Counted from the first letter of the stretch, positions 24,988 to 41,765 are shown. The stretch is DNA of 64,000 bases from Rhizobiaceae bacterium (GCA_965204295.1 OZ241973.1:3437940-3501939); one strand, 5' to 3'. A program made the numbers and translations. Notes: generated from the letters alone by a model not told the origin.

Positions 24988-27234
24988 CTAGCCAAACCGG
25001 CCGGACCTTGGAAAGCCCTTCGGCGCCATGCGGCCGGCGCCGGCGCGCGCGCCCATCCATTCGGCGAGTTCCTTCGCCGGGCGGGTAAACGTCCGGTCGG
25101 CGGAATCCAGCCAGGCGAGTCCCTCGGCCAGCGTGAACGTTTTCACGTCTCTGACGCCGCCGTCCCTGTATTTTTGCAGCCGCACGCCCTTGCCGCGCGT
25201 CATCTGCGGAATGTCGGCCAGCGGGAAGATCAGCAGCTTCCGGTTCTCGCCGACGATCGCCAGGTGATCGCCGGCGACGGCGACGCAGTTCCTCGCTTCG
25301 TCGGGCGCCTTGACATTCATTACCTGCCTGCCCTTTCGCGTATTGGCGACGACGTCTTTTTCCGCGACGACAAACCCGTTGCCGGCATAGGAGACAACCA
25401 GAAGCTTTCGCTCCGGATCGTGCACGAAGGCGGTCACGATGTCCTGATCGTTGTCCATATCGACAATGATGCGCACGGGTTCGCCGTGGCCGCGCCCGCC
25501 CGGCAACCGGTCGGCGCCGATCGTGTAGACCTTGCCGCCGGTGGTGAAAATCAGCACCTTGTCGGTCGTCAGCGCATGGAAGGCGAGTTTCAACCTGTCG
25601 CCCTCCTTGAAGGACAGCGCCGCGAAGTCCGACAGGTGCCCCTTCATGGCGCGCAGCCAGCCCTTCTCGGAGACGACCACGGTAATCGGCTCCTTCTCGA
25701 TCATCGCCTGCTGGATGGCCTCCATGTCGTGATCGGGCGCTTCGCCGAAATCGGTGCGACGCGCGCCCTGCTCGATATCCCCGCCAAATTTCTTCTTCGC
25801 CTCGCCGATCTGGCGAGCGATCATTCGCCACTGCTTGTCGCCGGACGCGAGCAGCGCCTCGATCACTCTCTTTTCCTCGGTCAAGGCGTCGAATTCCTTG
25901 CGAATCCCGATCTCTTCCAGCTTGCGCAGGGCGCGCAGACGCATGTTGAGGATCGCTTCGGCCTGCACGTCGCTCAACCGGAAGCGGGCCATCATCACCT
26001 TTTTGGGCTCGTCCTCCTCGCGGACGATCCCGATCACCTCGTCGATATTCAGATAGGCGACGAGATATCCGCCGAGCACTTCGAGACGGCGCCCGATCCG
26101 GCCCAGCCGGTGGCGCGACCGGCGCAACAACACCTCCTTGCGGTGATCGAGCCATTCGCGCAGCACGCCGCGCAGCGACAGGACGCCGGGAACCCTGCCG
26201 CGCGACAGCACGTTCATGTTGAGCGGGATCCGGCTTTCCAGATCGGTGAGTTTGAACAGCGATTCCATCAACACGCCGGGATCGACCGAGCGGCTTTTCG
26301 GCGTCAGCACGACGCGGATGTCTTCGGCGCTTTCGTCGCGGACGTCTTCGAGGAGCGGCAGTTTCCTGGCGATCAGCAATTCGGCGATCTTCTCGATCAG
26401 CCGGGATTTCTGCACCTGATAGGGGATTTCGGTGACCGCGATCACCCAGGCGCCCCTGCCCCGTTCCTCCTTCTCCCACCGGGCGCGTACGCGAAAACCG
26501 CCGCGTCCGGTCGCATAGGCCTCGACGATCGAGGCGCGGTCATCGACAATCGTTCCGCCGGTCGGAAAATCCGGACCCGGAACCATGCCGACAAGTTTTT
26601 CGACCGTGGCGTTCGGATGTTCGATCAGATGCAACGCGGCGTCGCACAATTCGGCGGCGTTGTGCGGGGGAATCGAGGTCGCCATGCCGACCGCGATGCC
26701 GGAGGCGCCGTTGGCGAGCAGATTCGGAAACGCGCCGGGAAGCACGGCCGGCTCCTCGTCCTCCTCGTTGTAAGTCGGACGAAAATCGACCGCGTCCTCG
26801 TCGATGCCCTCGAGCAGTTCGACCGCGACATCGGTCATGCGCGCTTCGGTGTAGCGGTAGGCGGCGGCGTTGTCTCCGTCGATATTGCCGAAATTGCCCT
26901 GCCCGTCGACCAGCGGGTAACGCATGGAGAAATCCTGCGCCAGCCGCACCAGCGCGTCATAGACCGCCTGGTCGCCGTGCGGATGGAATTTGCCGATCAC
27001 GTCGCCGACGATGCGGGCGCACTTCTTGTACGCCTCGTCCGGGTCGAGGCGCAGAATGCGCATGGCATGCAGAATGCGCCGGTGGACGGGCTTCAATCCG
27101 TCGCGCACGTCCGGCAGCGCGCGGTGCATGATGGTCGAGAGCGCATAGGCGAGATAGCGCTCTTCAAGAGCCGATTTCAGATCGACCGGTTCGATATCGT
27201 CTCCGTCGCCCGGCGGAACAAGGCTTTTCCCCAT
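24988..27234 (-). CDS. parC: DNA topoisomerase IV subunit A
   Basis: 748 aa of the GyrA/ParC family ([16 protein letters not shown], active-site AAAYRYTE). The size and C-terminal domain fit ParC rather than GyrA. Confidence 0.85.
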
Positions 27235-27396: not shown

Positions 27397-27816
27397 ATGA
27401 TGGTCGAACAAATGCACACGGCCGGCTGGTGGCCCGGCATCTACGAACCCCTGCGCGGTTTCGGGCGGAAAGTCGCCGATTGGATCGCACCGCGGTCCGA
27501 TGCTTCCACGGATGAGGATTTTTATGAAATCAACATCGAACTGCCGGGTGTGAAGCCCGGCGATGTGGACGTGTCCGTTCACGACGGAAGCGTCATGATA
27601 AAAGGCGAGAAGCACTTCGAGCGCGAGAAAAAGGGCCGGACGTTCTTCTTCTCGGAACGCGAATATGGCTCGTTTCAACGCACGTTCCGTCTGCCCGCCG
27701 ACGCCGACGCCGGCAAGATCGACGCGGAGTTCGGCAACGGCGTGCTGTGTCTGAAGATCGCCAGGGCCGTGCAGAAACGGTCCGAGGGCAGGAAAATCGA
27801 CGTGCGGTCGGCCTGA
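27397..27816 (+). CDS. Hsp20/alpha-crystallin family small heat-shock protein
   Basis: Alpha-crystallin domain (YEINIELPGVKPGDVDVSV...FQRTFRLP...GVLCLKI). A GGAGG SD sits 5-8 nt upstream of tandem ATGs at 27397/27400. Confidence 0.85.
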   Translation: MMVEQMHTAGWWPGIYEPLRGFGRKVADWIAPRSDASTDEDFYEINIELPGVKPGDVDVSVHDGSVMIKGEKHFEREKKGRTFFFSEREYGSFQRTFRLPADADAGKIDAEFGNGVLCLKIARAVQKRSEGRKIDVRSA

Positions 27817-29434: not shown

Positions 29435-30595
29435 ATGGAATTGATCAGCACGACGACCGCGCTCCGGGACGCGGTATCCGAACTTTCCAGGTCCGAATTC
29501 ATTACCGTCGACACCGAGTTCATCCGTGAAACGACATTCTGGCCGGAGTTGTGCCTGATCCAGATGGCGGCGCCGGGAACCGAAGCGATGGTCGACGCGC
29601 TGGCGCCGGGCCTCGACCTGGAACCGTTTTTCGGCCTGATGGGCGACGAGGCGGTGGTCAAGGTGTTTCACGCCGCGCGCCAGGACATCGAGATCGTTTT
29701 TCATCGCGGCGGCCTGATTCCGCATCCGGTGTTCGATACGCAGGTCGCGGCCATGGTTTGCGGATTCGGCGACAGCGTCTCCTACGATCAGCTTGTCCAG
29801 AGAATTACCGGCAATTCGATTGACAAGTCATCCCGCTTCACCGATTGGCGCCGCCGCCCGTTGTCGCAGAAACAACTGGCCTATGCGCTCGCCGACGTGA
29901 CATATCTCATCGACGTCTACCGCCGCCTCGAAGCCGAATTGCGGCGCGAGAACCGCGCGCATTGGCTGGAGGACGAGATGGAGGCGCTTACGGCGCGCGA
30001 AACCTACGACATCCGTCCGGAAGAAGCCTGGAACCGGCTCAGGAAACGATTGAGAAAGCCGGCGGAACTGGCCGTCATGCGATCCGTCGCCGCCTGGCGC
30101 GAGCGGGAGGCGCGGTCCCGGAACGTACCGCGCGGGCGCGTGTTGAAGGACGACGCGATTTACGAGATCGCGCAACAACAACCGACGGACCCGGAAAAAC
30201 TGAGCCGGCTGAGAACCATACCGCGTGGCCGGAAACGTTCGGGCGACGTCGCCGGCCTGCTGAAGGCGGTCAACGACGCGCTCGCGCTGCCGCGCGACCG
30301 GATGCCGAGCCCGCTCAAGCCGAAACGCCCGCCAAACGGCGCCGCCGCGGCGGCGGAACTCCTGAAAGTGTTATTGCGGATGACGTCGGAGGATTCGGGC
30401 GTAGCGGCCAGGGTTCTCGCCTCCGGCGACGATATCGACAAACTGGCCGCCGAGGGCGAAAAGGCCGACATTCCGGCGCTGAACGGCTGGCGTCGCGAAG
30501 TGTTCGGCGATCCCGCGCTAAAACTGATCCGTGGCGAGACCGCGCTTCGCTACAGGAACGGCAAGGTGGCGACGGAGGAATGCCGGCCGGGATGA
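29435..30595 (+). CDS. rnd: Ribonuclease D
   Basis: DEDD 3'-5' exonuclease motifs (ITVDTEF, FHAARQDIE, YALADVTYL) followed by an HRDC region. Confidence 0.9.
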   Translation: MELISTTTALRDAVSELSRSEFITVDTEFIRETTFWPELCLIQMAAPGTEAMVDALAPGLDLEPFFGLMGDEAVVKVFHAARQDIEIVFHRGGLIPHPVFDTQVAAMVCGFGDSVSYDQLVQRITGNSIDKSSRFTDWRRRPLSQKQLAYALADVTYLIDVYRRLEAELRRENRAHWLEDEMEALTARETYDIRPEEAWNRLRKRLRKPAELAVMRSVAAWREREARSRNVPRGRVLKDDAIYEIAQQQPTDPEKLSRLRTIPRGRKRSGDVAGLLKAVNDALALPRDRMPSPLKPKRPPNGAAAAAELLKVLLRMTSEDSGVAARVLASGDDIDKLAAEGEKADIPALNGWRREVFGDPALKLIRGETALRYRNGKVATEECRPG

Positions 30596-30629
30596 CCCCC
30601 CGCCGGCCCGGTGCGCCATGCGTATCGCC

Positions 30630-31601
30630 TCAGGCGGCTTTGCGCCGGGGCATGTAGGAGGGCGGTGCGATGCCGAGCGCCTCGCGAAGGTCGGGCGGAA
30701 CGAGCCGGTGCGCCGATATGCGCGCAAACGGCATTTCCGCGATCAGACGGTCGGCCCCGGCGATTTCGAGATATTCGTCGTAATTGTCGAAGCCGGACCG
30801 GCCGACATAATCGATAAAGCTCTCCGCGGGAACGCCGTTGGCGACGACGCACTCGTGGTTCTCAAGCTCCACATGCCACCAGACGAATTTCGTCGGCATG
30901 TCCGAAAGCGGCAGGAAGCGGATTGGTGTTCCGTCCTCCGCCAGCGTGCCGGCGTTGATCAGCATATCGCCGAACAGCAGGGCGTGATCGGCGGTCACGG
31001 TCAGCGGTCTGTTCGGCAGGTCCGGGCCGAGGGCGCCGGCGTCGATGCGCACGGGCTTGCGTCCGAGTTCGACGCCGCGCGGGTTGGCGACGGTCTGCCG
31101 CGCCACCCAGATCGCCGGCGTCGACCTGCCGTCATGGGTCACGACCCGGTCGCCGGGTTTCAGGGTTTCGATGGCCTTTTCGCCGTCCGGCGTGGCGATC
31201 CTCGTTCCGGTCGCGAAGCAGTTGAAGACCTGCGCCCCGTTTCCCGTGTAGACCGACGTGAAGCCCCCTGCCGTCAGGGGCGCGAGGTTTGCGTCCGCCA
31301 GGTTGTAGGGGATGTAATATTGTGCTTCTCCGCCGCCGAACTGCCTGCCGCCGCCGCCGGACTGCCTGCCGAAAATGGCGTAGGTCTCGCCTTCGAATCC
31401 GATCGTGTACCCCGTGAAGACGTTCTCGCGCGCCAAGAACGAGTCCGCGCCGACATCCAGGAGGCCGTCATCTCCGGAATTGACCATGCCCGATGATTGT
31501 TGCCGGATGGAGGCGGAAGTCCACGAGATGCTCCCGCCCGGCTGGTTGACGACATCCATGCCGGGTAGGCTTATAAAAATGTAATGAGAAAATGTAGCCA
31601 C
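30630..31601 (-). CDS. Hint (Hedgehog/intein-like, bacterial intein-like) domain protein, paralog 1
   Basis: A 127-aa divergent N-module, then N|CFATGT...TADH...VANGVPAESF, which matches the Cys1 and TxxH blocks of Hint/BIL domains. GTG start with an AAGGAGA SD. Confidence 0.8.
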   Translation of the reverse strand: MATFSHYIFISLPGMDVVNQPGGSISWTSASIRQQSSGMVNSGDDGLLDVGADSFLARENVFTGYTIGFEGETYAIFGRQSGGGGRQFGGGEAQYYIPYNLADANLAPLTAGGFTSVYTGNGAQVFNCFATGTRIATPDGEKAIETLKPGDRVVTHDGRSTPAIWVARQTVANPRGVELGRKPVRIDAGALGPDLPNRPLTVTADHALLFGDMLINAGTLAEDGTPIRFLPLSDMPTKFVWWHVELENHECVVANGVPAESFIDYVGRSGFDNYDEYLEIAGADRLIAEMPFARISAHRLVPPDLREALGIAPPSYMPRRKAA

Positions 31602-31739
31602 GGGCCGTCTCCTTTCAGTCCCGGGGAGCGACCCGGCGGAAACCCGCGAGGCAAACGCCCCGGTCAGATGCCGGTTGCCCGACAGTCCGTCTTCACACCC
31701 ATGCCGCCGATTTGGGAAACGGGCGCGTCATACTTCAAT

Positions 31740-31775
31740 GGCGACGCACCGCTTGATGACGACGCCCCGCTTGAT
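31740..31775. repeat. Two-unit 18-bp tandem repeat in the 5' leader of Hint paralog 1
   Basis: ggcgacgcaccgcttgat / gacgacgccccgcttgat. Same family as the long arrays upstream of paralogs 2 and 3. Confidence 0.8.
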
Positions 31776-31779
31776 GGGC

Positions 31780-31807
31780 ATTGTACGGCCCCGACACGGA
31801 CCGTCAA
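31780..31807 (-). promoter_or_regulatory. Predicted sigma70-type promoter of Hint paralog 1
   Basis: Gene-sense strand reads TTGACG-16 nt-TACAAT. The same architecture is conserved upstream of all paralogs. The repeat begins 4-5 nt after the -10 box. Confidence 0.5.
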
Positions 31808-31872
31808 GGGGCCCTTCCGCACCCGGACGCCGGCGCGAGAAAAGAGCGCGCGCCCGCCGCGTCACGCCATGC

Positions 31873-31980
31873 GCCGGTCTTCAAACGCCTTTCAAACGCC
31901 CTTCGAAACGGTTTTGAGGGGCCTTCGGGCGAAAACGCCGGACAGCGCCCTTGAGGGAGCGCCGCCGCCGTCTCCTTGCG
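31873..31980. repeat. Conserved ~110-nt 3' element of the Hint unit (copy downstream of paralog 2)
   Basis: Near-identical to 33483..33592 and similar to 41443..41554 (tcttcaaacgcctttcaaacgcccttcgaaacgg...gaggggccttcgggcgaaaacgcc...). Confidence 0.8.
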
Positions 31981-32946
31981 TCAGGCGGCGGTTTTCCGGG
32001 GGGCGGCGATAAGAGGCCGCCGGGCGATGGCCGGCAATCCCCGCAACCCGTTCGCCGGCAACAGACGCCGCGCCGATATGCGCGCAAACGGCATTTCCTT
32101 AATCAGACGGTCCGCGCCCACAAGGTCGAGATACTCGTCGTAATTGTCGAAGCCGGACCGGCCGACATAATCGATAAAGCTTTCCGCGGGAACGCCGCCA
32201 TTGGCCAGAACGACCTCGTGGTTCTCAAGCTCCACATGCCACCAGGTGAATTTCGTCGGCATGTCCTCAAGCGGCAGGAAGCGGACCGGGGTTCCGTCCT
32301 CCGCCAGCGTGCCGGCGTTGACCAGCATGTCGCCGAACAGCAGGGCGTGGTCGGCGGTCACGGTCAGCGGTCTGTTCGGCAGGTTCGGGCCGAGCGCGCC
32401 GGCGTCGATGCGCACGGGCTTTCGTCCGAGTTCGACGCCGCGCGGGTTGGCGACGGTCTGCCTCGCCACCCAGATCGCCGGCGTCGACCTGCCGTCATGG
32501 GTCACGACCCGGTCGCCGGGTTGCAGCGTTTCGATGGCCTTTTCGCCGTCAGGCGTCAGAATCGTCGTTCCGGTGGCGAAGCAGTTGGAGACATCGGCTC
32601 CGGTGGGGATGTAACCCGTCGAACTGCCCCTAACCAAGGGCGCGAGGTCATGCTGCGCCGCGTTGTAGGGGATGAAATAAGTGTCCGGTTCGACGGTGCC
32701 CGTACTACCGAAAATGGCGTAGGTCCGGCCTTCGTATTCGACCACGTACCCCGTGTAGACGATGGGTGGGCTTACTCTTCCTAACTGGTCGACGTTTCGA
32801 TCCAGAAGCCCATCGGGTCCGGAATCGACACTGGATGGTAAATTAACGGCGGCGCCATTACTCCACGAGATTGAACCGTCCGGCCCGCCGGGGGTTACGT
32901 GCACGTTAGTTAACCGGATGACATGAGTGAATGATACATCAGCCAC
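31981..32946 (-). CDS. Hint/BIL domain protein, paralog 2
   Basis: The Hint module is over 90 percent identical by eye to paralogs 1 and 3, while the N-module is divergent. The start is set to the GTG (ADVSFTHVI) that aligns with the paralog starts. An in-frame upstream ATG at 33066 is an alternative. Confidence 0.7.
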   Translation of the reverse strand: MADVSFTHVIRLTNVHVTPGGPDGSISWSNGAAVNLPSSVDSGPDGLLDRNVDQLGRVSPPIVYTGYVVEYEGRTYAIFGSTGTVEPDTYFIPYNAAQHDLAPLVRGSSTGYIPTGADVSNCFATGTTILTPDGEKAIETLQPGDRVVTHDGRSTPAIWVARQTVANPRGVELGRKPVRIDAGALGPNLPNRPLTVTADHALLFGDMLVNAGTLAEDGTPVRFLPLEDMPTKFTWWHVELENHEVVLANGGVPAESFIDYVGRSGFDNYDEYLDLVGADRLIKEMPFARISARRLLPANGLRGLPAIARRPLIAAPRKTAA

Positions 32947-33074
32947 GAATAATCTCAACGGGGAACGCACCGGCGGAAAACCGCGGGCAGACGTTCCGGT
33001 CAGATGCCGGTTGCCCGACGGCCTGTCCTCACACCCATGCCACCGATAAGGAAACGGGCGCGTCATACTTCATT

Positions 33075-33378
33075 GGCGACGCACCGCTTGGGCGACGCAC
33101 CGCTTGGGCGACGCACCGCTTGGGCGACGCACCGCTTGGGCGACGCACCGCTTGGGCGACGCACCGCTTGGGCGACGCACCGCTTGGGCGACGCACCGCT
33201 TGGGCGACGCACCGCTTGGGCGACGCACCGCTTGGGCGACGCACCGCTTGGGCGACGCACCGCTTGGGCGACGCACCGCTTGGGCGACGCACCGCTTGGG
33301 CGACGCACCGCTTGGGCGACGCACCGCTTGGGCGACGCACCGCTTGGGCGACGCACCGCTTGGGCGACGCACCGCTTG
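33075..33378. repeat. 19 perfect tandem copies of a 16-bp unit (GGCGACGCACCGCTTG) in the 5' leader of Hint paralog 2
   Basis: Counted directly: 304 bp = 19 x 16 with no visible substitutions. All six frames are open across it. Confidence 0.95.
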
Positions 33379-33383
33379 ATTCC

Positions 33384-33411
33384 ATTATATGGCCCCGACA
33401 CGGACGGTCAA
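33384..33411 (-). promoter_or_regulatory. Predicted sigma70-type promoter of Hint paralog 2
   Basis: Gene-sense strand reads TTGACC-16 nt-TATAAT. The repeat array begins 5 nt downstream of the -10 box. Confidence 0.55.
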
Positions 33412-33482
33412 GAGGCTTTTCCGCACCCGTCGGGACACGGCCCGGCGCGCCTTGGTCACGGATTTCGACTCCGTGATTTGAC

Positions 33483-33592
33483 GCCGGTCTTAAAGCGCCT
33501 TGCAAACGCCCTTCGAAACGCGGTTTTGAGGGGCCTTCGGGCGAAAACGCCGGACAGCGCCCTTGAGGGAGCGCCGCCGCCGTCTCCTTGCG
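33483..33592. repeat. Conserved ~110-nt 3' element of the Hint unit (copy downstream of paralog 3)
   Basis: Aligns with 31873..31980 and 41443..41554. Confidence 0.8.
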
Positions 33593-34570
33593 TCAGGCGG
33601 CGGTTTTCCGGGGGGCGGCGATAAGAGGCCGCCGGGCGATGGCCGGCAATCCCCGCAACCCGTTCGCCGGCAACAGACGCCGCGCCGATATGCGCGCAAA
33701 CGGCATTTCCTTAATCAGACGGTCGGCCCCCGCAAGGTCGAGATATTCGTCGTAATTGTCGAAACCGGACCGGCCGACATAATCGATAAAACTCTCCGCA
33801 GGAACGCCGCCATTGGCCAGAACGACCTCGTGGTTCTCAAGCTCCACATGCCACCAGATGAATTTCGTCGGCATGTCCGAAAGCGGCAGGAAGCGGATCG
33901 GGGTTCCGTCCTCCGCCAGCGTGCCGGCGTTGACCAGCATGTCGCCGAACAGCAGGGCGTGATCGCCCGTCACGGTCAGCGGTCTGTTCGGCAGGTCCGG
34001 GCCGAGGGCGCCGGCGTCGATGCGCACCGGTTTGCGGCCGAGTTCGACGCCGCGCGGGTTGGCGACGGTCTGCCGCGCCACCCAGATCACCGGCGTCGAC
34101 CTGCCGTCATGGGTCATGACCCGGTCGCCGGGTTGCAGCGTCTCGATGGCCCGCTCGCCGTCCGGCGTCAGAATCGTCGTTCCGGTGGCGAAGCAGTTGA
34201 AGACCTGGGCATTGCTGGGCTGGAAACCCGTCGAGACGCCGCCCATGAACGCCAGGGTGCCGAGGTTTTGTCCCTGCTCGGGGTCATAGGGGATGTAATA
34301 TCGCGCTCCTCCGCCGCTGAGCGGCCTGCCGAAAATGGCGTAGGTCTCGCCTTCGTATTCGACCACGTACCCCGTGTAGGTGGTGGCATCGTTTAGGAAC
34401 CAGTCGGTTCCGGCATCCAGGATGTCATCGTCTCCGGTATTGACGCTGAATCGTGGGTCCACATTGTCAGTGGCAGTAAAAACAGTCCACGAGATCGACC
34501 CGTCCGGCCCGGAGGGGAGGGGCGTCGGCGAATTAATCTCAATGTAGTTGGGGAACTCTATAACAGCCAT
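33593..34570 (-). CDS. Hint/BIL domain protein, paralog 3
   Basis: The ATG at 34570 (MAVIEFPNY) is preceded by AAGGAAA. Same N|CFATGT ... TGDH ... LANGGVPAESF architecture. Confidence 0.8.
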   Translation of the reverse strand: MAVIEFPNYIEINSPTPLPSGPDGSISWTVFTATDNVDPRFSVNTGDDDILDAGTDWFLNDATTYTGYVVEYEGETYAIFGRPLSGGGARYYIPYDPEQGQNLGTLAFMGGVSTGFQPSNAQVFNCFATGTTILTPDGERAIETLQPGDRVMTHDGRSTPVIWVARQTVANPRGVELGRKPVRIDAGALGPDLPNRPLTVTGDHALLFGDMLVNAGTLAEDGTPIRFLPLSDMPTKFIWWHVELENHEVVLANGGVPAESFIDYVGRSGFDNYDEYLDLAGADRLIKEMPFARISARRLLPANGLRGLPAIARRPLIAAPRKTAA

Positions 34571-34705
34571 GGGTAGTTTCCTTTCAATCCGGGGAACGAA
34601 CCGGCGGAAACCCGCGGGCAAACGTTCCATTAAGATGCCGGTTGCCCGACAATCCGTCTTCACACCCCTGCCACCGATCGGGACACGGGCGCGTCATACT
34701 TCAAT

Positions 34706-34894
34706 GGCGACGCCCCGCTTGAGGCGACGCACCGCTTTGAGGCGACGCACCGCTTTGAGGCGACGCACCGCTTTGAGGCGACGCACCGCTTTGAGGCGAC
34801 GCACCGCTTTGAGGCGACGCACCGCTTGGGCGACGCACCGCTTTGAGGCGACGCACCGCTTGGGCGACGCACCGCTTGGGCGACGCACCGCTTG
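34706..34894. repeat. 11-unit tandem repeat (mixed 16/17/18-bp variants of GGCGACGCACCGCTT(T)G(A)) in the 5' leader of Hint paralog 3
   Basis: Units counted by hand: one 17-mer, five 18-mers, then an alternation of 16- and 18-mers. Confidence 0.9.
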
Positions 34895-34899
34895 ACCTC

Positions 34900-34927
34900 A
34901 CTATATGGGCCCGACCCAAACCGTCAA
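34900..34927 (-). promoter_or_regulatory. Predicted sigma70-type promoter of Hint paralog 3
   Basis: Gene-sense strand reads TTGACG-16 nt-TATAGT. The repeat starts 5 nt downstream. Confidence 0.5.
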
Positions 34928-35024
34928 GGGGCCTTTTCGCAGCCGGACGCCGGCAAGGCGGGCCGCCCGTCGCGCATCTTGCGCGCCCGCAACCGCCGGC
35001 ATGTCGCGGATATGAGTCCCGGCC

Positions 35025-36539
35025 CTATTGCGGCGCGACCGCGAGCCGCAACGGCCTTTCGATCATTCTTGCAAGCTGCTCCAGCCGCCACGACGGTCTG
35101 TCGCCGTAAAGGCCGGCGAGATCGGCCGGCAGCCGCAGTTCCAGACCGCCGTCGCCAACTGCAACCCATTTCAGTCGCGGGATGACCCCGGGCATGGCCG
35201 CGGACAGCAGATATCCGACCCGCATCAAACCCGCCGCGAGTTTCGCGCGCTCGAACGATCTCGCTCCGGCGACTTCAACGAGCGCGGGCGAGACCTTCGC
35301 CGCCAGACCTTCGTGCCGGAACGCGGTGGCGAGGGCGATAAACGCCCGCCCGGGATGATCGATTCCGACAAACGAGGTGTGCGAAATCACATTGAGCGAT
35401 TGAGCGCCGCGATATTCCGGATGCGCCCGCCAGCCGATGTCGGCCAACATGCATGAGGCGCGCCGGCACCTCGCCTCGTCGGCGGTCTCGTCCACGCCGA
35501 ATTTCCCGAACGAACGCCCGGTCCAGTCAGCCATCTCCCGGGCGTGCGCGATGGACCGGGAGCGAAGCAGCGCCAGTTCCCCGGCGGCGGCGGCAAGCGG
35601 GTCCAGATCGCGCTCGACATCGTTCAGAAGCGAATACAGATAACCTTCCCGCACCCCGAGAGCCGACACTTCGATATGGGCCGGCCGCATGATCCTGATG
35701 ATTTCCTCCAGCACGATCGCGCCATAGGGCAACAGCGACCGGCGGTTCTTCGATACGCTGCCGATGCCCTTGACCGATTCGATTTCTCCCGACGACACCC
35801 GGCGCAGAAAACCGGCGATCCGAGCGGGCCTCATCGCGTAATGGTGTATGACGCCGAGAGGATAGCCGTCCGAGTTCATGTGAAGACGGGCGAGATTTCT
35901 CCATGTTCCGCCCACCGCGTAGAAGACCCGCCCCCTGCCCTTCGCGAGCCAGGACGCGCGCTTGAGTTCGGATGCCACGATCCCGCGAACCCTGCCAAGA
36001 TCCTCCCCCGCCATGTCGCGCAGGCGCAGGCCGCCGAGCGGCAGGGTGATGCCGTCGCCGATCCGCGTTCCCGATACGTCGAACAATTCCAGGCTGCCGC
36101 CGCCGAGATCGCCGCCGATCCCATCCGGCGACATGAAGCCGGAAATGACGCCCAATGCGGAATAATATGCTTCCCGGCGCCCCGACAGCACGTCGATTTC
36201 GGCGCCGAGGATTTTCTCGGCCCGCTCTATGAATTCCTGTCCGTTGACCGCCTCACGCGCGGCGGCGGTGGCGATCACATGCAGGGAGGCCGCGCCGGTT
36301 TGCGCGACCAGCGCCCGAAAACGCCTGAATTCCTCCATGGCCGCGTCGATCGCCGCCGGATCGAGCCGTCCGGTCGAATGAACGCCCCGGCCCAGACCGG
36401 CCAGCATTTTTTCATTGAAAAGAACCGTCGGAGACCTGGTCACGCCTTCATAGACGACAAGGCGAATCGAATTGGAACCGACATCGATGATTGCGACCGG
36501 TTCGCGGCCGGGCAGCCGACCCTGCGAAAAATCGTTCAT
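35025..36539 (-). CDS. ppx: Exopolyphosphatase (Ppx/GppA family)
   Basis: N-terminal ASKHA motif ([15 protein letters not shown]), 504 aa, overlaps the ppk1 stop by 4 nt. Confidence 0.9.
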
Positions 36540-41422: not shown

Positions 41423-41442
41423 TTTTCCCCGCGCATGCGCAA

Positions 41443-41554
41443 CATGGCACGATCTTCAAGCGCCTTTCAAACGCCCTTCAAAACGGCTGTGAGGGGCTTT
41501 CGGGAGCGCGACGAAACGCCCCCGCCGCGTCGGCTCACCCCAATGCGCATTGCG
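41443..41554. repeat. Conserved 3' element of the Hint unit (copy at the remnant)
   Basis: Aligns with 31873..31980 and 33483..33592. Confidence 0.75.
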
Positions 41555-41752
41555 TCAGGCGGCGGTTTTCCGGGGGGCGGCGATAAGAGGCCGCCGCGCG
41601 ATGGCCGGCAATCCCCGCAACCCGTTTCGCGGCAACAGACGCCGCGCCGATATGCGCGCAAACGGCATTTCCGCGATCAGACGATCGGCCCCGGCGATTT
41701 CGAGATAGTCGTCGTAATTGTCGAAACCGGACCGGCCGATATATAACCCCAA
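41555..41752 (-). pseudogene. Remnant of a Hint-domain gene: only the last ~65 codons remain
   Basis: Translation GRSGFDNYDDYLEIAGADRLIAEMPFARISARRLLP...APRKTAA equals the C-terminus of paralogs 2 and 3. Upstream it abruptly joins promoter-like sequence. Confidence 0.8.
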
Positions 41753-41765
41753 ACCAAACCGTCAA
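41738..41765 (-). promoter_or_regulatory. Hint-unit promoter copy fused to the remnant
   Basis: Gene-sense strand has TTGACG and, about 14-16 nt later, a TATATA/TATATC box. It aligns with the paralog-3 promoter (ccgtcaagggg...). Confidence 0.35.

Follow-up and report, generated by a model that had tools for sequence, protein, structure and literature searches.

A strain-variable tandem repeat array between a predicted promoter and a Hint-family gene in an uncultured relative of Mesorhizobium

Tandem Hint genes and their upstream arrays

The window, by which we mean the whole stretch of 64,000 bp that was analyzed, contains three tandem paralogous genes whose products belong to the Hint_2 family (PF13403; E about 1e-31 each, with scores of 109-112 bits against a cut-off of 28.4). 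The three paralogs share one architecture: a promoter-like site, a gap of 5-7 nt, a run of tandem units (2, 19, and 11 units in paralogs 1, 2, and 3, respectively), a leader of ~128 nt, and the start codon (Table 1). The array of 19 units that is our main subject is separated by a conserved leader from the probable start codon of paralog 2 (GTG, 32946), at a distance of 129-432 nt upstream of it, and two more arrays of its kind are present in the window.

Table 1. Positions of the Hint genes, arrays, leader, and promoter-like sites in the window
Feature	Position	Strand	Basis
-35-like hexamer TTGACC, Hint paralog 2	33406-33411	-	promoter scan; CTTGAC kept in all paralog upstream regions
-10-like hexamer TATAAT, 16-nt spacer, Hint paralog 2	33384-33389	-	promoter scan; same type in sister strains
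GGAAT between -10 and array	33379-33383	-	raw sequence, upstream alignment
Array, 19 perfect 16-bp units, gene sense CAAGCGGTGCGTCGCC	33075-33378	-	TRF, raw sequence, sister-strain polymorphism
Conserved 128-nt leader, Hint paralog 2	32947-33074	-	alignments; without Rfam match
Hint paralog 2 CDS, 321 aa, most likely GTG start	31981-32946	-	Pfam Hint_2 E = 3e-31; N-terminus fits homologues
Promoter-like site TTGACG-16-TATAGT, Hint paralog 3	34900-34927	-	promoter scan
11 units, mixed 16, 17, and 18 bp, Hint paralog 3	34706-34893	-	TRF, core scan
Hint paralog 3 CDS, 325 aa	33593-34570	-	ORF and Pfam, paralog alignment
Promoter-like site TTGACG-16-TACAAT, Hint paralog 1	31780-31807	-	promoter scan
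Two imperfect units, Hint paralog 1	31742-31772	-	TRF, haplotype comparison
Hint paralog 1 CDS, 323 aa	30630-31601	-	ORF and Pfam

The array of paralog 2 is a perfect tandem repeat. TRF reported a period of 16, 19.0 copies, 100% matches, 0 indels, and a score of 608 for the unit GGCGACGCACCGCTTG, and the raw sequence agreed. The preliminary description of this DNA had claimed 19 perfect copies of a 16-bp unit that begin 5 nt downstream of TTGACC-16-TATAAT on the minus strand; our repeat analysis and promoter scan confirmed both statements. Its claim that all six reading frames are open across the array also held, as there were ORFs in three plus-strand and three minus-strand frames, and our results support its view that the array is non-coding and directly 3' of a strong promoter-like site, one that proved to be conserved in the family.

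The unit is confined to the Hint leaders. Allowing at most one mismatch, we counted 32 occurrences of the unit's 12-nt core across the 64 kb of the window (0.6 expected by chance), and all 32 fall in the three arrays, each of which is upstream of one of the three Hint genes. The unit is not a dispersed repeat, and the core scan found no antisense partner of it within the 64-kb window.

Each array is preceded by a good match to a promoter. The site of paralog 2 matches the consensus at 11 of 12 positions, and there were 7 promoter-like sites in 4.8 kb compared with 0.6 expected from shuffled sequences. Alignment of the upstream regions of the three paralogs gave the shared pattern CTTGAC[G/C]-16-TA[T/C]A[A/G]T. 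The first base of the array of paralog 2 (33378) is five bases past the -10 hexamer. Since transcription usually starts 6-9 nt past the -10, the predicted start site would fall on the first bases of the array; both the promoter and the +1 are consensus predictions. Phase variation through the length of the promoter spacer was rejected: the 16 nt between the -35 and the -10 are free of repeats, and the array begins 5 nt past the -10.

A GANTC site (GAATC, 33378-33382, minus strand) sits between the -10 and the first unit and overlaps the predicted +1. GANTC is also present at the junction of the -10 and the unit in TATAAT-type promoters and in several paralogs of a second Hint locus (see below). 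From what is established about CcrM, we take GANTC, and with it the GAATC at this junction, to be a CcrM methylation site; it could link TATAAT-type Hint promoters to cell-cycle methylation.

Translation of paralog 2 most likely starts at the GTG at 32946, because the resulting protein aligns with its paralogs and with homologues beginning MADVS. An ATG at 33066 is a less likely start; it is in frame only by accident, since leader lengths differ among the paralogs by numbers that are not multiples of three. Automated gene calls are a hazard at these arrays: ORFs of 166-345 aa were called on or beside them in the window (for example 33004-33624 on the plus strand and 33029-33505 on the minus strand) and in sister strains, and some of the plus-strand calls at arrays replace the true Hint gene.

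The Hint proteins have a modular layout. In an alignment of 15 paralogs, a variable N-terminal part of ~120 aa is followed by an invariant N-C-F-A-T-G, which supplies the catalytic Cys expected where the Hint module begins (C122); the module and the C-terminal tail after it are conserved as well. This layout matches those of the Hedgehog and intein families, which suggests a self-cleaving Hint protein that would release its N-terminal part. AlphaFold2 gave a mean pLDDT of 54.6, with the N-terminal part predicted to be all-beta (pLDDT 65-87). With this low-confidence model, Foldseek found only weak matches to inteins and BIL domains, and none for the N-terminal domain. Searches of the PDB by sequence and of NCBIfam gave no significant match to the Hint protein, and we found nothing in the literature on secretion of Hint_2 proteins or on the sample accessions. 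We did find 202 relatives of the protein, nearly all from contigs that belong to the same set of ENA samples and several per contig; one contig of 3.4 Mb has at least 13 Hint paralogs, divided between a second locus and the locus between RNase D and Ppx.

There are further traces of Hint genes in the window. At 41440-41765 on the minus strand, a Hint-type promoter (CCTTGACGG...TATATAT) is fused to the last ~60 Hint codons (GRSGFDNYDDYLEIAGADRLIAEMPFARISARRLLP...KTAA and the stop codon), and this segment is a deletion remnant of a fourth Hint paralog. In sister strains, full, partial, or split Hint genes lie beside the FAD-binding gene. In addition, an 11-bp direct repeat of 2.6-2.8 copies (gene sense GGCGTTTGAAG) is found at 31879-31910, about 33491-33522, and 41454-41482, just 3' of each Hint stop codon and ~95-125 nt upstream of the next Hint promoter. 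Its period of one helical turn suggests a putative binding site for a protein of the response-regulator type.

Copy number of the array among strains

The host is an uncultured relative of Mesorhizobium. Its ParC is 87% identical to that of an entry named 'MAG: Rhizobiaceae bacterium' and 80% identical to that of Mesorhizobium, and its EF-Tu groups with those of Hyphomicrobiales. About 19 ParC variants were found at 99-100% identity, indicating that many strains co-occur. In several sister strains, a Type ISP restriction-modification gene (1068 aa, N6_Mtase and Type_ISP_C) and two small ORFs are inserted between the genes for ParC (24988-27234) and HSP20 (27400-27816). The Type ISP gene is absent from the window and from other sister haplotypes, and it is split in one.

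Unit arrays are known from the host species alone. A sister species (ParC 85% identical) is without Hint genes at the same locus. A scan of GTDB genomes with the protein, which did not reach the host species itself, gave Hint_2 genes that were all distant (identity no higher than 54%, chiefly from Rhodobacterales) and in no case had an upstream array; the 27-bp repeats near some of these genes are within coding regions. Two scans of JGI metagenomes, one with a two-unit DNA pattern and one by protein alignment, gave no usable match. A relative in JGI 3300000051 (Botbay15_c001511), with a Hint_2 protein 56% identical to that of the window, has a related leader and no unit array. It is the lack of arrays in the sister species and in the GTDB and JGI relatives that restricts them, as far as known, to one species.

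The number of units differs among strains of this species. Using exact-protein look-up with RNase D, Ppx, and HSP20, we found 14 contigs in addition to the window, all from the long-read metagenome analysis ERZ25068762 at ENA and with coverage of 8-704x as stated in their names. The flanking genes were 99.4-99.8% identical to those of the window. The interval between RNase D and Ppx held 1-3 Hint genes per haplotype, some of them truncated or frameshifted, for a total of 30 cassettes of promoter, array, and gene in the 15 haplotypes.

Cassettes could be sorted by promoter type. The type to which the 19-unit array belongs (TATAAT/GGAATC) was present in 9 of the 15 haplotypes, with 19, 14, about 20, 15, 6, 29, 46, 10, 1, and 1 copies of the unit. 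Cassettes of the TATAGT/GAGGTC type had 11, 5, 2, 21, 4, 2, 8, 6, 2, 5, and 2 copies; those of the TACAAT/GCCCATC type had 2, 2, 2, 2, 2, 2, and 3; and two further promoter variants had 15 and 17. The copy number thus spans 1-46 across the 15 haplotypes, no two of which share the same set of alleles. The preliminary description had suspected that copy number changes and had proposed a search for polymorphism in related strains, and this comparison bore it out: the array is a real variable-number tandem repeat (VNTR).

Unit length varied as well. Units are 16, 17, or 18 bp long, with 0, 1, or 2 bases added at the junction. The length differs among strains at the same promoter and is homogeneous or arranged in blocks within an array; for example, the array of 46 units, at 765 bp the longest, has blocks of 17-, 16-, and 17-bp units.

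The pattern of variation is that expected of slippage or unequal exchange, with high diversity in long perfect arrays and low diversity in the short imperfect one. The imperfect two-unit allele of the TACAAT type had n = 2 in 6 of 7 haplotypes. This stability fits the imperfection of its two units, as expected if slippage needs perfect repeats. The closest pairs of haplotypes differed by about 1 substitution per kb across 4.9 kb of flank, and at this minimum distance there was no pair among the 15 haplotypes with identical flanks and different n. What the data prove is polymorphism between strains and concerted homogenization, and not high-frequency switching within a clone. The array does have three of the features by which contingency loci are recognized: a near-identical tandem tract, a position in the promoter or leader region (relative to the predicted start site), and a copy number that differs from strain to strain.

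Origin of the unit and predicted folding of the leader

Other members of the Hint family carry the unit in few copies at the same place. A second locus, in a sister strain, comprises no fewer than 10 Hint_2 genes in tandem, and every gene there has a promoter and a leader to itself. This locus is at about 590-606 kb of ENA ctg152757, where genes for an AAA ATPase, DUF6638, and DUF2333 precede it. Further tandem and solitary Hint paralogs were examined in two other strains. Every paralog had its own CTTGAC-N16/17-TATAAT-like promoter, followed by 0, 1, or 2-3 units (often degenerate) and then by a long or a short leader. In the paralogs with no unit, the leader begins 4-5 nt past the -10, which shows that the gene's own promoter is the one upstream of the arrays. 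The box A(A/G)AGCGGTGCG(T/A)CGCC was kept 7-11 nt past the -10 in paralogs whose leader had otherwise diverged. Because other paralogs have 0-3 copies of the unit in the corresponding position, the arrays are amplifications of it, and one unit (AAGCGGTGCGTCGCC) is ancestral, a native element at the predicted 5' end of the leader of the Hint family. The preliminary description had overlooked both this single-copy box of the family and the presence of arrays at all three paralogs of the window.

The leader between the array and the gene is itself conserved. It occurs, with a length of ~130 nt, upstream of all three genes of the window (32947-33074, 31602-31741, and 34571-34705, minus strand), where the motifs AUUGAAGUAUGACGCGCCCG...GUCGGGCAACCGGCAUCU...GAAAGGAGA are common to the paralogs in this order. 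Within the window, leader 18-mers are found only at the three Hint paralogs, and in paralog alignments the leader was far more conserved than the 120 N-terminal codons downstream of it. In the 128-nt leader of paralog 2, an AU-rich stretch (AAUGAAGUAUGA) lies directly 3' of the array; this leader also contains the unit in inverted form (GACGCGCC), a weak SD (GAGA), and three predicted hairpins. There is also a degenerate direct copy of the unit (CATGGGTGTG), and the last unit forms with the leader an inverted repeat with two-turn spacing, GGTGCGTC-N13-GACGC[G/A]CC. The leader alignments did not demonstrate covariation for pairing of the inverted unit or of the direct copy. RNAalifold, applied to 13 leaders, predicted three hairpins with one compensatory pair (GGAACG/CGUUCC versus GGGGCG/CGCUCC). 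In searches of Rfam 15, the arrays and leaders gave no match at the gathering threshold (window) or at E <= 1 (30500-35100). We regard the ~130-nt leader as a candidate uncharacterized cis-regulatory RNA of the Hint family.

Folding of the array itself was not distinguishable from that of shuffled sequence. The preliminary description had proposed a 4-bp hairpin within each unit; this hairpin did no better than shuffled sequences (-2.9 kcal/mol, z = -0.17). A stronger feature is a 12-bp pairing of neighboring units that includes G-U pairs, and it was likewise not significant. The 12-mer GCGGUGCGUCGC, as RNA, is self-complementary if four G-U pairs are allowed. The predicted folding energy was -14.6 kcal/mol for two units and fell by about 8 kcal/mol with each added unit, and in the MFE structure the units pair with each other such that the array folds as a self-contained module. 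None of the single unit, dimer, tetramer, leader, or full UTR lay beyond the shuffle distribution (z = -0.2 to -1.8). A long hairpin between the array and a complementary arm in the leader was absent, the leader having one inverted unit.

Possible function of the array

We slightly favor the view that the array is a hypermutable minisatellite in a transcribed leader, acting as an expression rheostat or contingency element of the Hint gene. This reading draws on the analogy with hmw1A (see below) and on the exclusion of other routes. The first ~16 nt of the transcribed Hint leader would have been amplified in tandem to give a minisatellite. The copies being perfect direct repeats, replication slippage or unequal exchange would shift the copy number far faster than point mutations accrue, such that every strain would come to have a different allele, from 1 to 46 copies. 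The array would be the 5' part of the mRNA and a separate structured module folded on itself. The first unit is the same at any n and the spacing of the -35 and -10 is untouched; initiation should therefore be independent of n, and any effect must come later. A graded change in the amounts of mRNA and protein could arise after initiation, through elongation, processing, or stability of the transcript. Occlusion of the ribosome-binding site is an unlikely route and was rejected in silico, as the SD and start codon were predicted to be equally accessible (0.62-0.63) for all n between 0 and 20. The tandem Hint paralogs would in this way each gain a heritable and quickly changeable level of expression. 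That such variable expression of Hint proteins benefits the cell is our conjecture.

The variation could instead be without regulatory consequence, a possibility that we consider rather unlikely. A slippage-prone box in an untranslated leader that tolerates changes in length would simply drift in copy number, and several results are in keeping with such a neutral minisatellite: copy numbers of 1-46 show no preferred value, the predicted accessibility of the ribosome-binding site is constant with n, folding is not above that of shuffled sequence, and some cassettes at the locus are pseudogenes or truncated, as if the locus were partly decaying. However, divergent paralogs in which the surrounding sequence has changed retain the single unit at a constant spacing from the -10, evidence that the box itself is functional, and an mRNA lengthened at its 5' end by as much as 750 nt of structured RNA would probably be affected. 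In addition, all 11 arrays with n >= 10 precede an intact gene (full-length ORFs of 316-325 aa), an association that is not significant as judged from the cassette counts (hypergeometric, about 0.08).

It is also conceivable, and in our judgment quite improbable, that the array acts as DNA. The unit, at +1 to +16, would be the binding site of a family-specific regulator of DNA-binding type, and its amplification would strengthen or titrate repression, with the units serving as roadblocks or decoys. The box is where a repressor operator would usually be found, and paralogs have kept it; 4 of 6 Watson-Crick pairs make the 12-mer GCGGTGCGTCGC a partial palindrome, and the inverted repeat formed by the last unit and the leader has two-turn spacing. 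Against this, no regulator gene adjoins the Hint clusters, the palindrome is imperfect as DNA and needs G-U pairs for full self-complementarity, and unit lengths of 16, 17, and 18 bp give no fixed helical phasing.

Much the least probable explanations are an artefact of assembly, a coding repeat, and a repeat of the CRISPR type. Mis-assembly classically occurs at perfect tandem repeats, but arrays are present at the same position in 14 independent contigs (8-704x) and at three promoters in the window, and the longest is well under the length of a long read, which makes an artefact very unlikely. Gene callers did place ORFs through the arrays. None of the ORFs called on arrays had a Pfam match, and a coding repeat was rejected: copy numbers differ by other than multiples of three units, and mixed unit lengths shift any frame. 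An upstream ORF or leader peptide was rejected because indels in the leader break every frame and the ATGs in the leader give short ORFs that are not conserved. CRISPR was rejected because the units are contiguous, with no spacers.

A broader version of the regulatory reading is speculative, and we think it unlikely to hold in full. The 16-nt box could be a family-wide cis-element for a single factor that acts in trans, be it protein or RNA. The tandem Hint genes, which number in the dozens and have variable N-termini and their own promoters, would then constitute a combinatorial, repeat-programmed repertoire of expression in a possibly host-associated bacterium. Such a repertoire would be akin to the variable surface proteins of mycoplasmas, except that the variable element would be a repeat of long units at the mRNA 5' end. 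The longest arrays (as many as 46 units, about 750 nt) could also titrate the factor as decoys and thereby alter how the entire family is expressed.

Returning to the rheostat that we favor, variable repeats that alter expression are known in other bacteria. To our knowledge, nearly all known cases of such variation come from host-adapted pathogens and involve units of 1-9 nt. In Moraxella catarrhalis, the number of AGAT repeats in the 5'-UTR of uspA2 reportedly affects the level of mRNA (Attia and Hansen, 2006). The Hint array resembles that of uspA2 in being a multi-copy repeat between a (here predicted) transcription start and the start codon; the uspA2 repeat is a tetranucleotide at a single gene, whereas the Hint unit is a family-wide leader box of 16-18 bp with up to 46 copies. 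The vlp, vsp, and vsa genes of Mycoplasma are tandem paralogs with conserved 5' regions, and hypermutable homopolymers between the -35 and -10 of their promoters switch them on and off, each gene independently of the others. The Hint genes are likewise tandem paralogs with conserved 5' regions, a variable part of the protein, and one mutable tract per gene; unlike that of the Mycoplasma genes, the Hint tract is downstream of the -10 and cannot alter promoter spacing. Plasmid iterons and operator arrays are also direct repeats, of ~16-22 bp, and could, like the Hint units, bind protein cooperatively. In contrast to these, the Hint locus is chromosomal, has no replication or partition gene nearby, and consists of contiguous identical units with a highly unstable copy number.

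The closest parallel is in Haemophilus influenzae. The preliminary description held that no described regulatory class matches this arrangement; this was wrong, as transcribed repeats that act as rheostats in the 5'-UTR are known from hmw1A and hmw2A (PMC12721329). The 5'-UTR transcript of hmw1A includes the (ATCTTTC)n repeat, which folds into an RNase III hairpin, and a higher n goes with lower expression (PMC12721329). In both systems, the tandem repeat is downstream of the promoter and before the start codon (its transcription is a prediction in the case of the Hint array), the genes are paralogous, allelic diversity is high, and copy number varies between strains. For hmw1A and hmw2A, variation of copy number within a strain, action as a rheostat, and a mechanism at the RNA level have been described (PMC12721329), and the same study calls the action of leader repeats at the RNA level poorly understood (PMC12721329). 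The two differ in the unit (16-18 bp compared with 7 bp in hmw), in pairing (Hint units, by prediction, with each other, hmw repeats with a G-rich right arm), and in setting (a Hint-domain product of an uncultured Mesorhizobium-like host compared with an adhesin of a human pathogen).

Two other systems may be compared. In tlpB of Helicobacter pylori, a variable G-repeat in the leader is the target of the sRNA RepG and sets the strength of post-transcriptional control (PMC8295292). tlpB shares with the Hint genes a variable repeat in the (here predicted) mRNA leader; its repeat is a homopolymer with a known sRNA (PMC8295292), whereas the 64-kb window contains no antisense partner of the Hint unit. 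Arrays of as many as 43 copies of the heptamer TAACTGA, from Beggiatoaceae, cyanobacteria, and Bacteroidetes, have been proposed as sites that a post-transcriptional regulator would use (PMC4679880). These too are short direct repeats of environmental bacteria that lie in the 5' regions of genes, but they are within a few nt of the start codon and at many unrelated genes (PMC4679880), whereas the Hint array is at the 5' end of a conserved leader of ~130 nt and in one gene family only.

Based on these comparisons, the kind of element is already known: a strain-variable tandem repeat in a promoter-proximal transcribed leader that sets expression, with the TAACTGA arrays perhaps belonging here as well. 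What is new is the unit of 16-18 bp, its origin from a leader box at the predicted +1, the array length of up to 46 units, the predicted pairing between units, the class of gene, and the lineage of the host. At least 15 co-occurring strains provide a natural allelic series of 1-46 copies on nearly identical backgrounds. If the array does tune expression, then this strategy would extend to a new lineage, a new size of unit, and a new class of genes, the bacterial Hint or hedgehog-like autoprocessing proteins.
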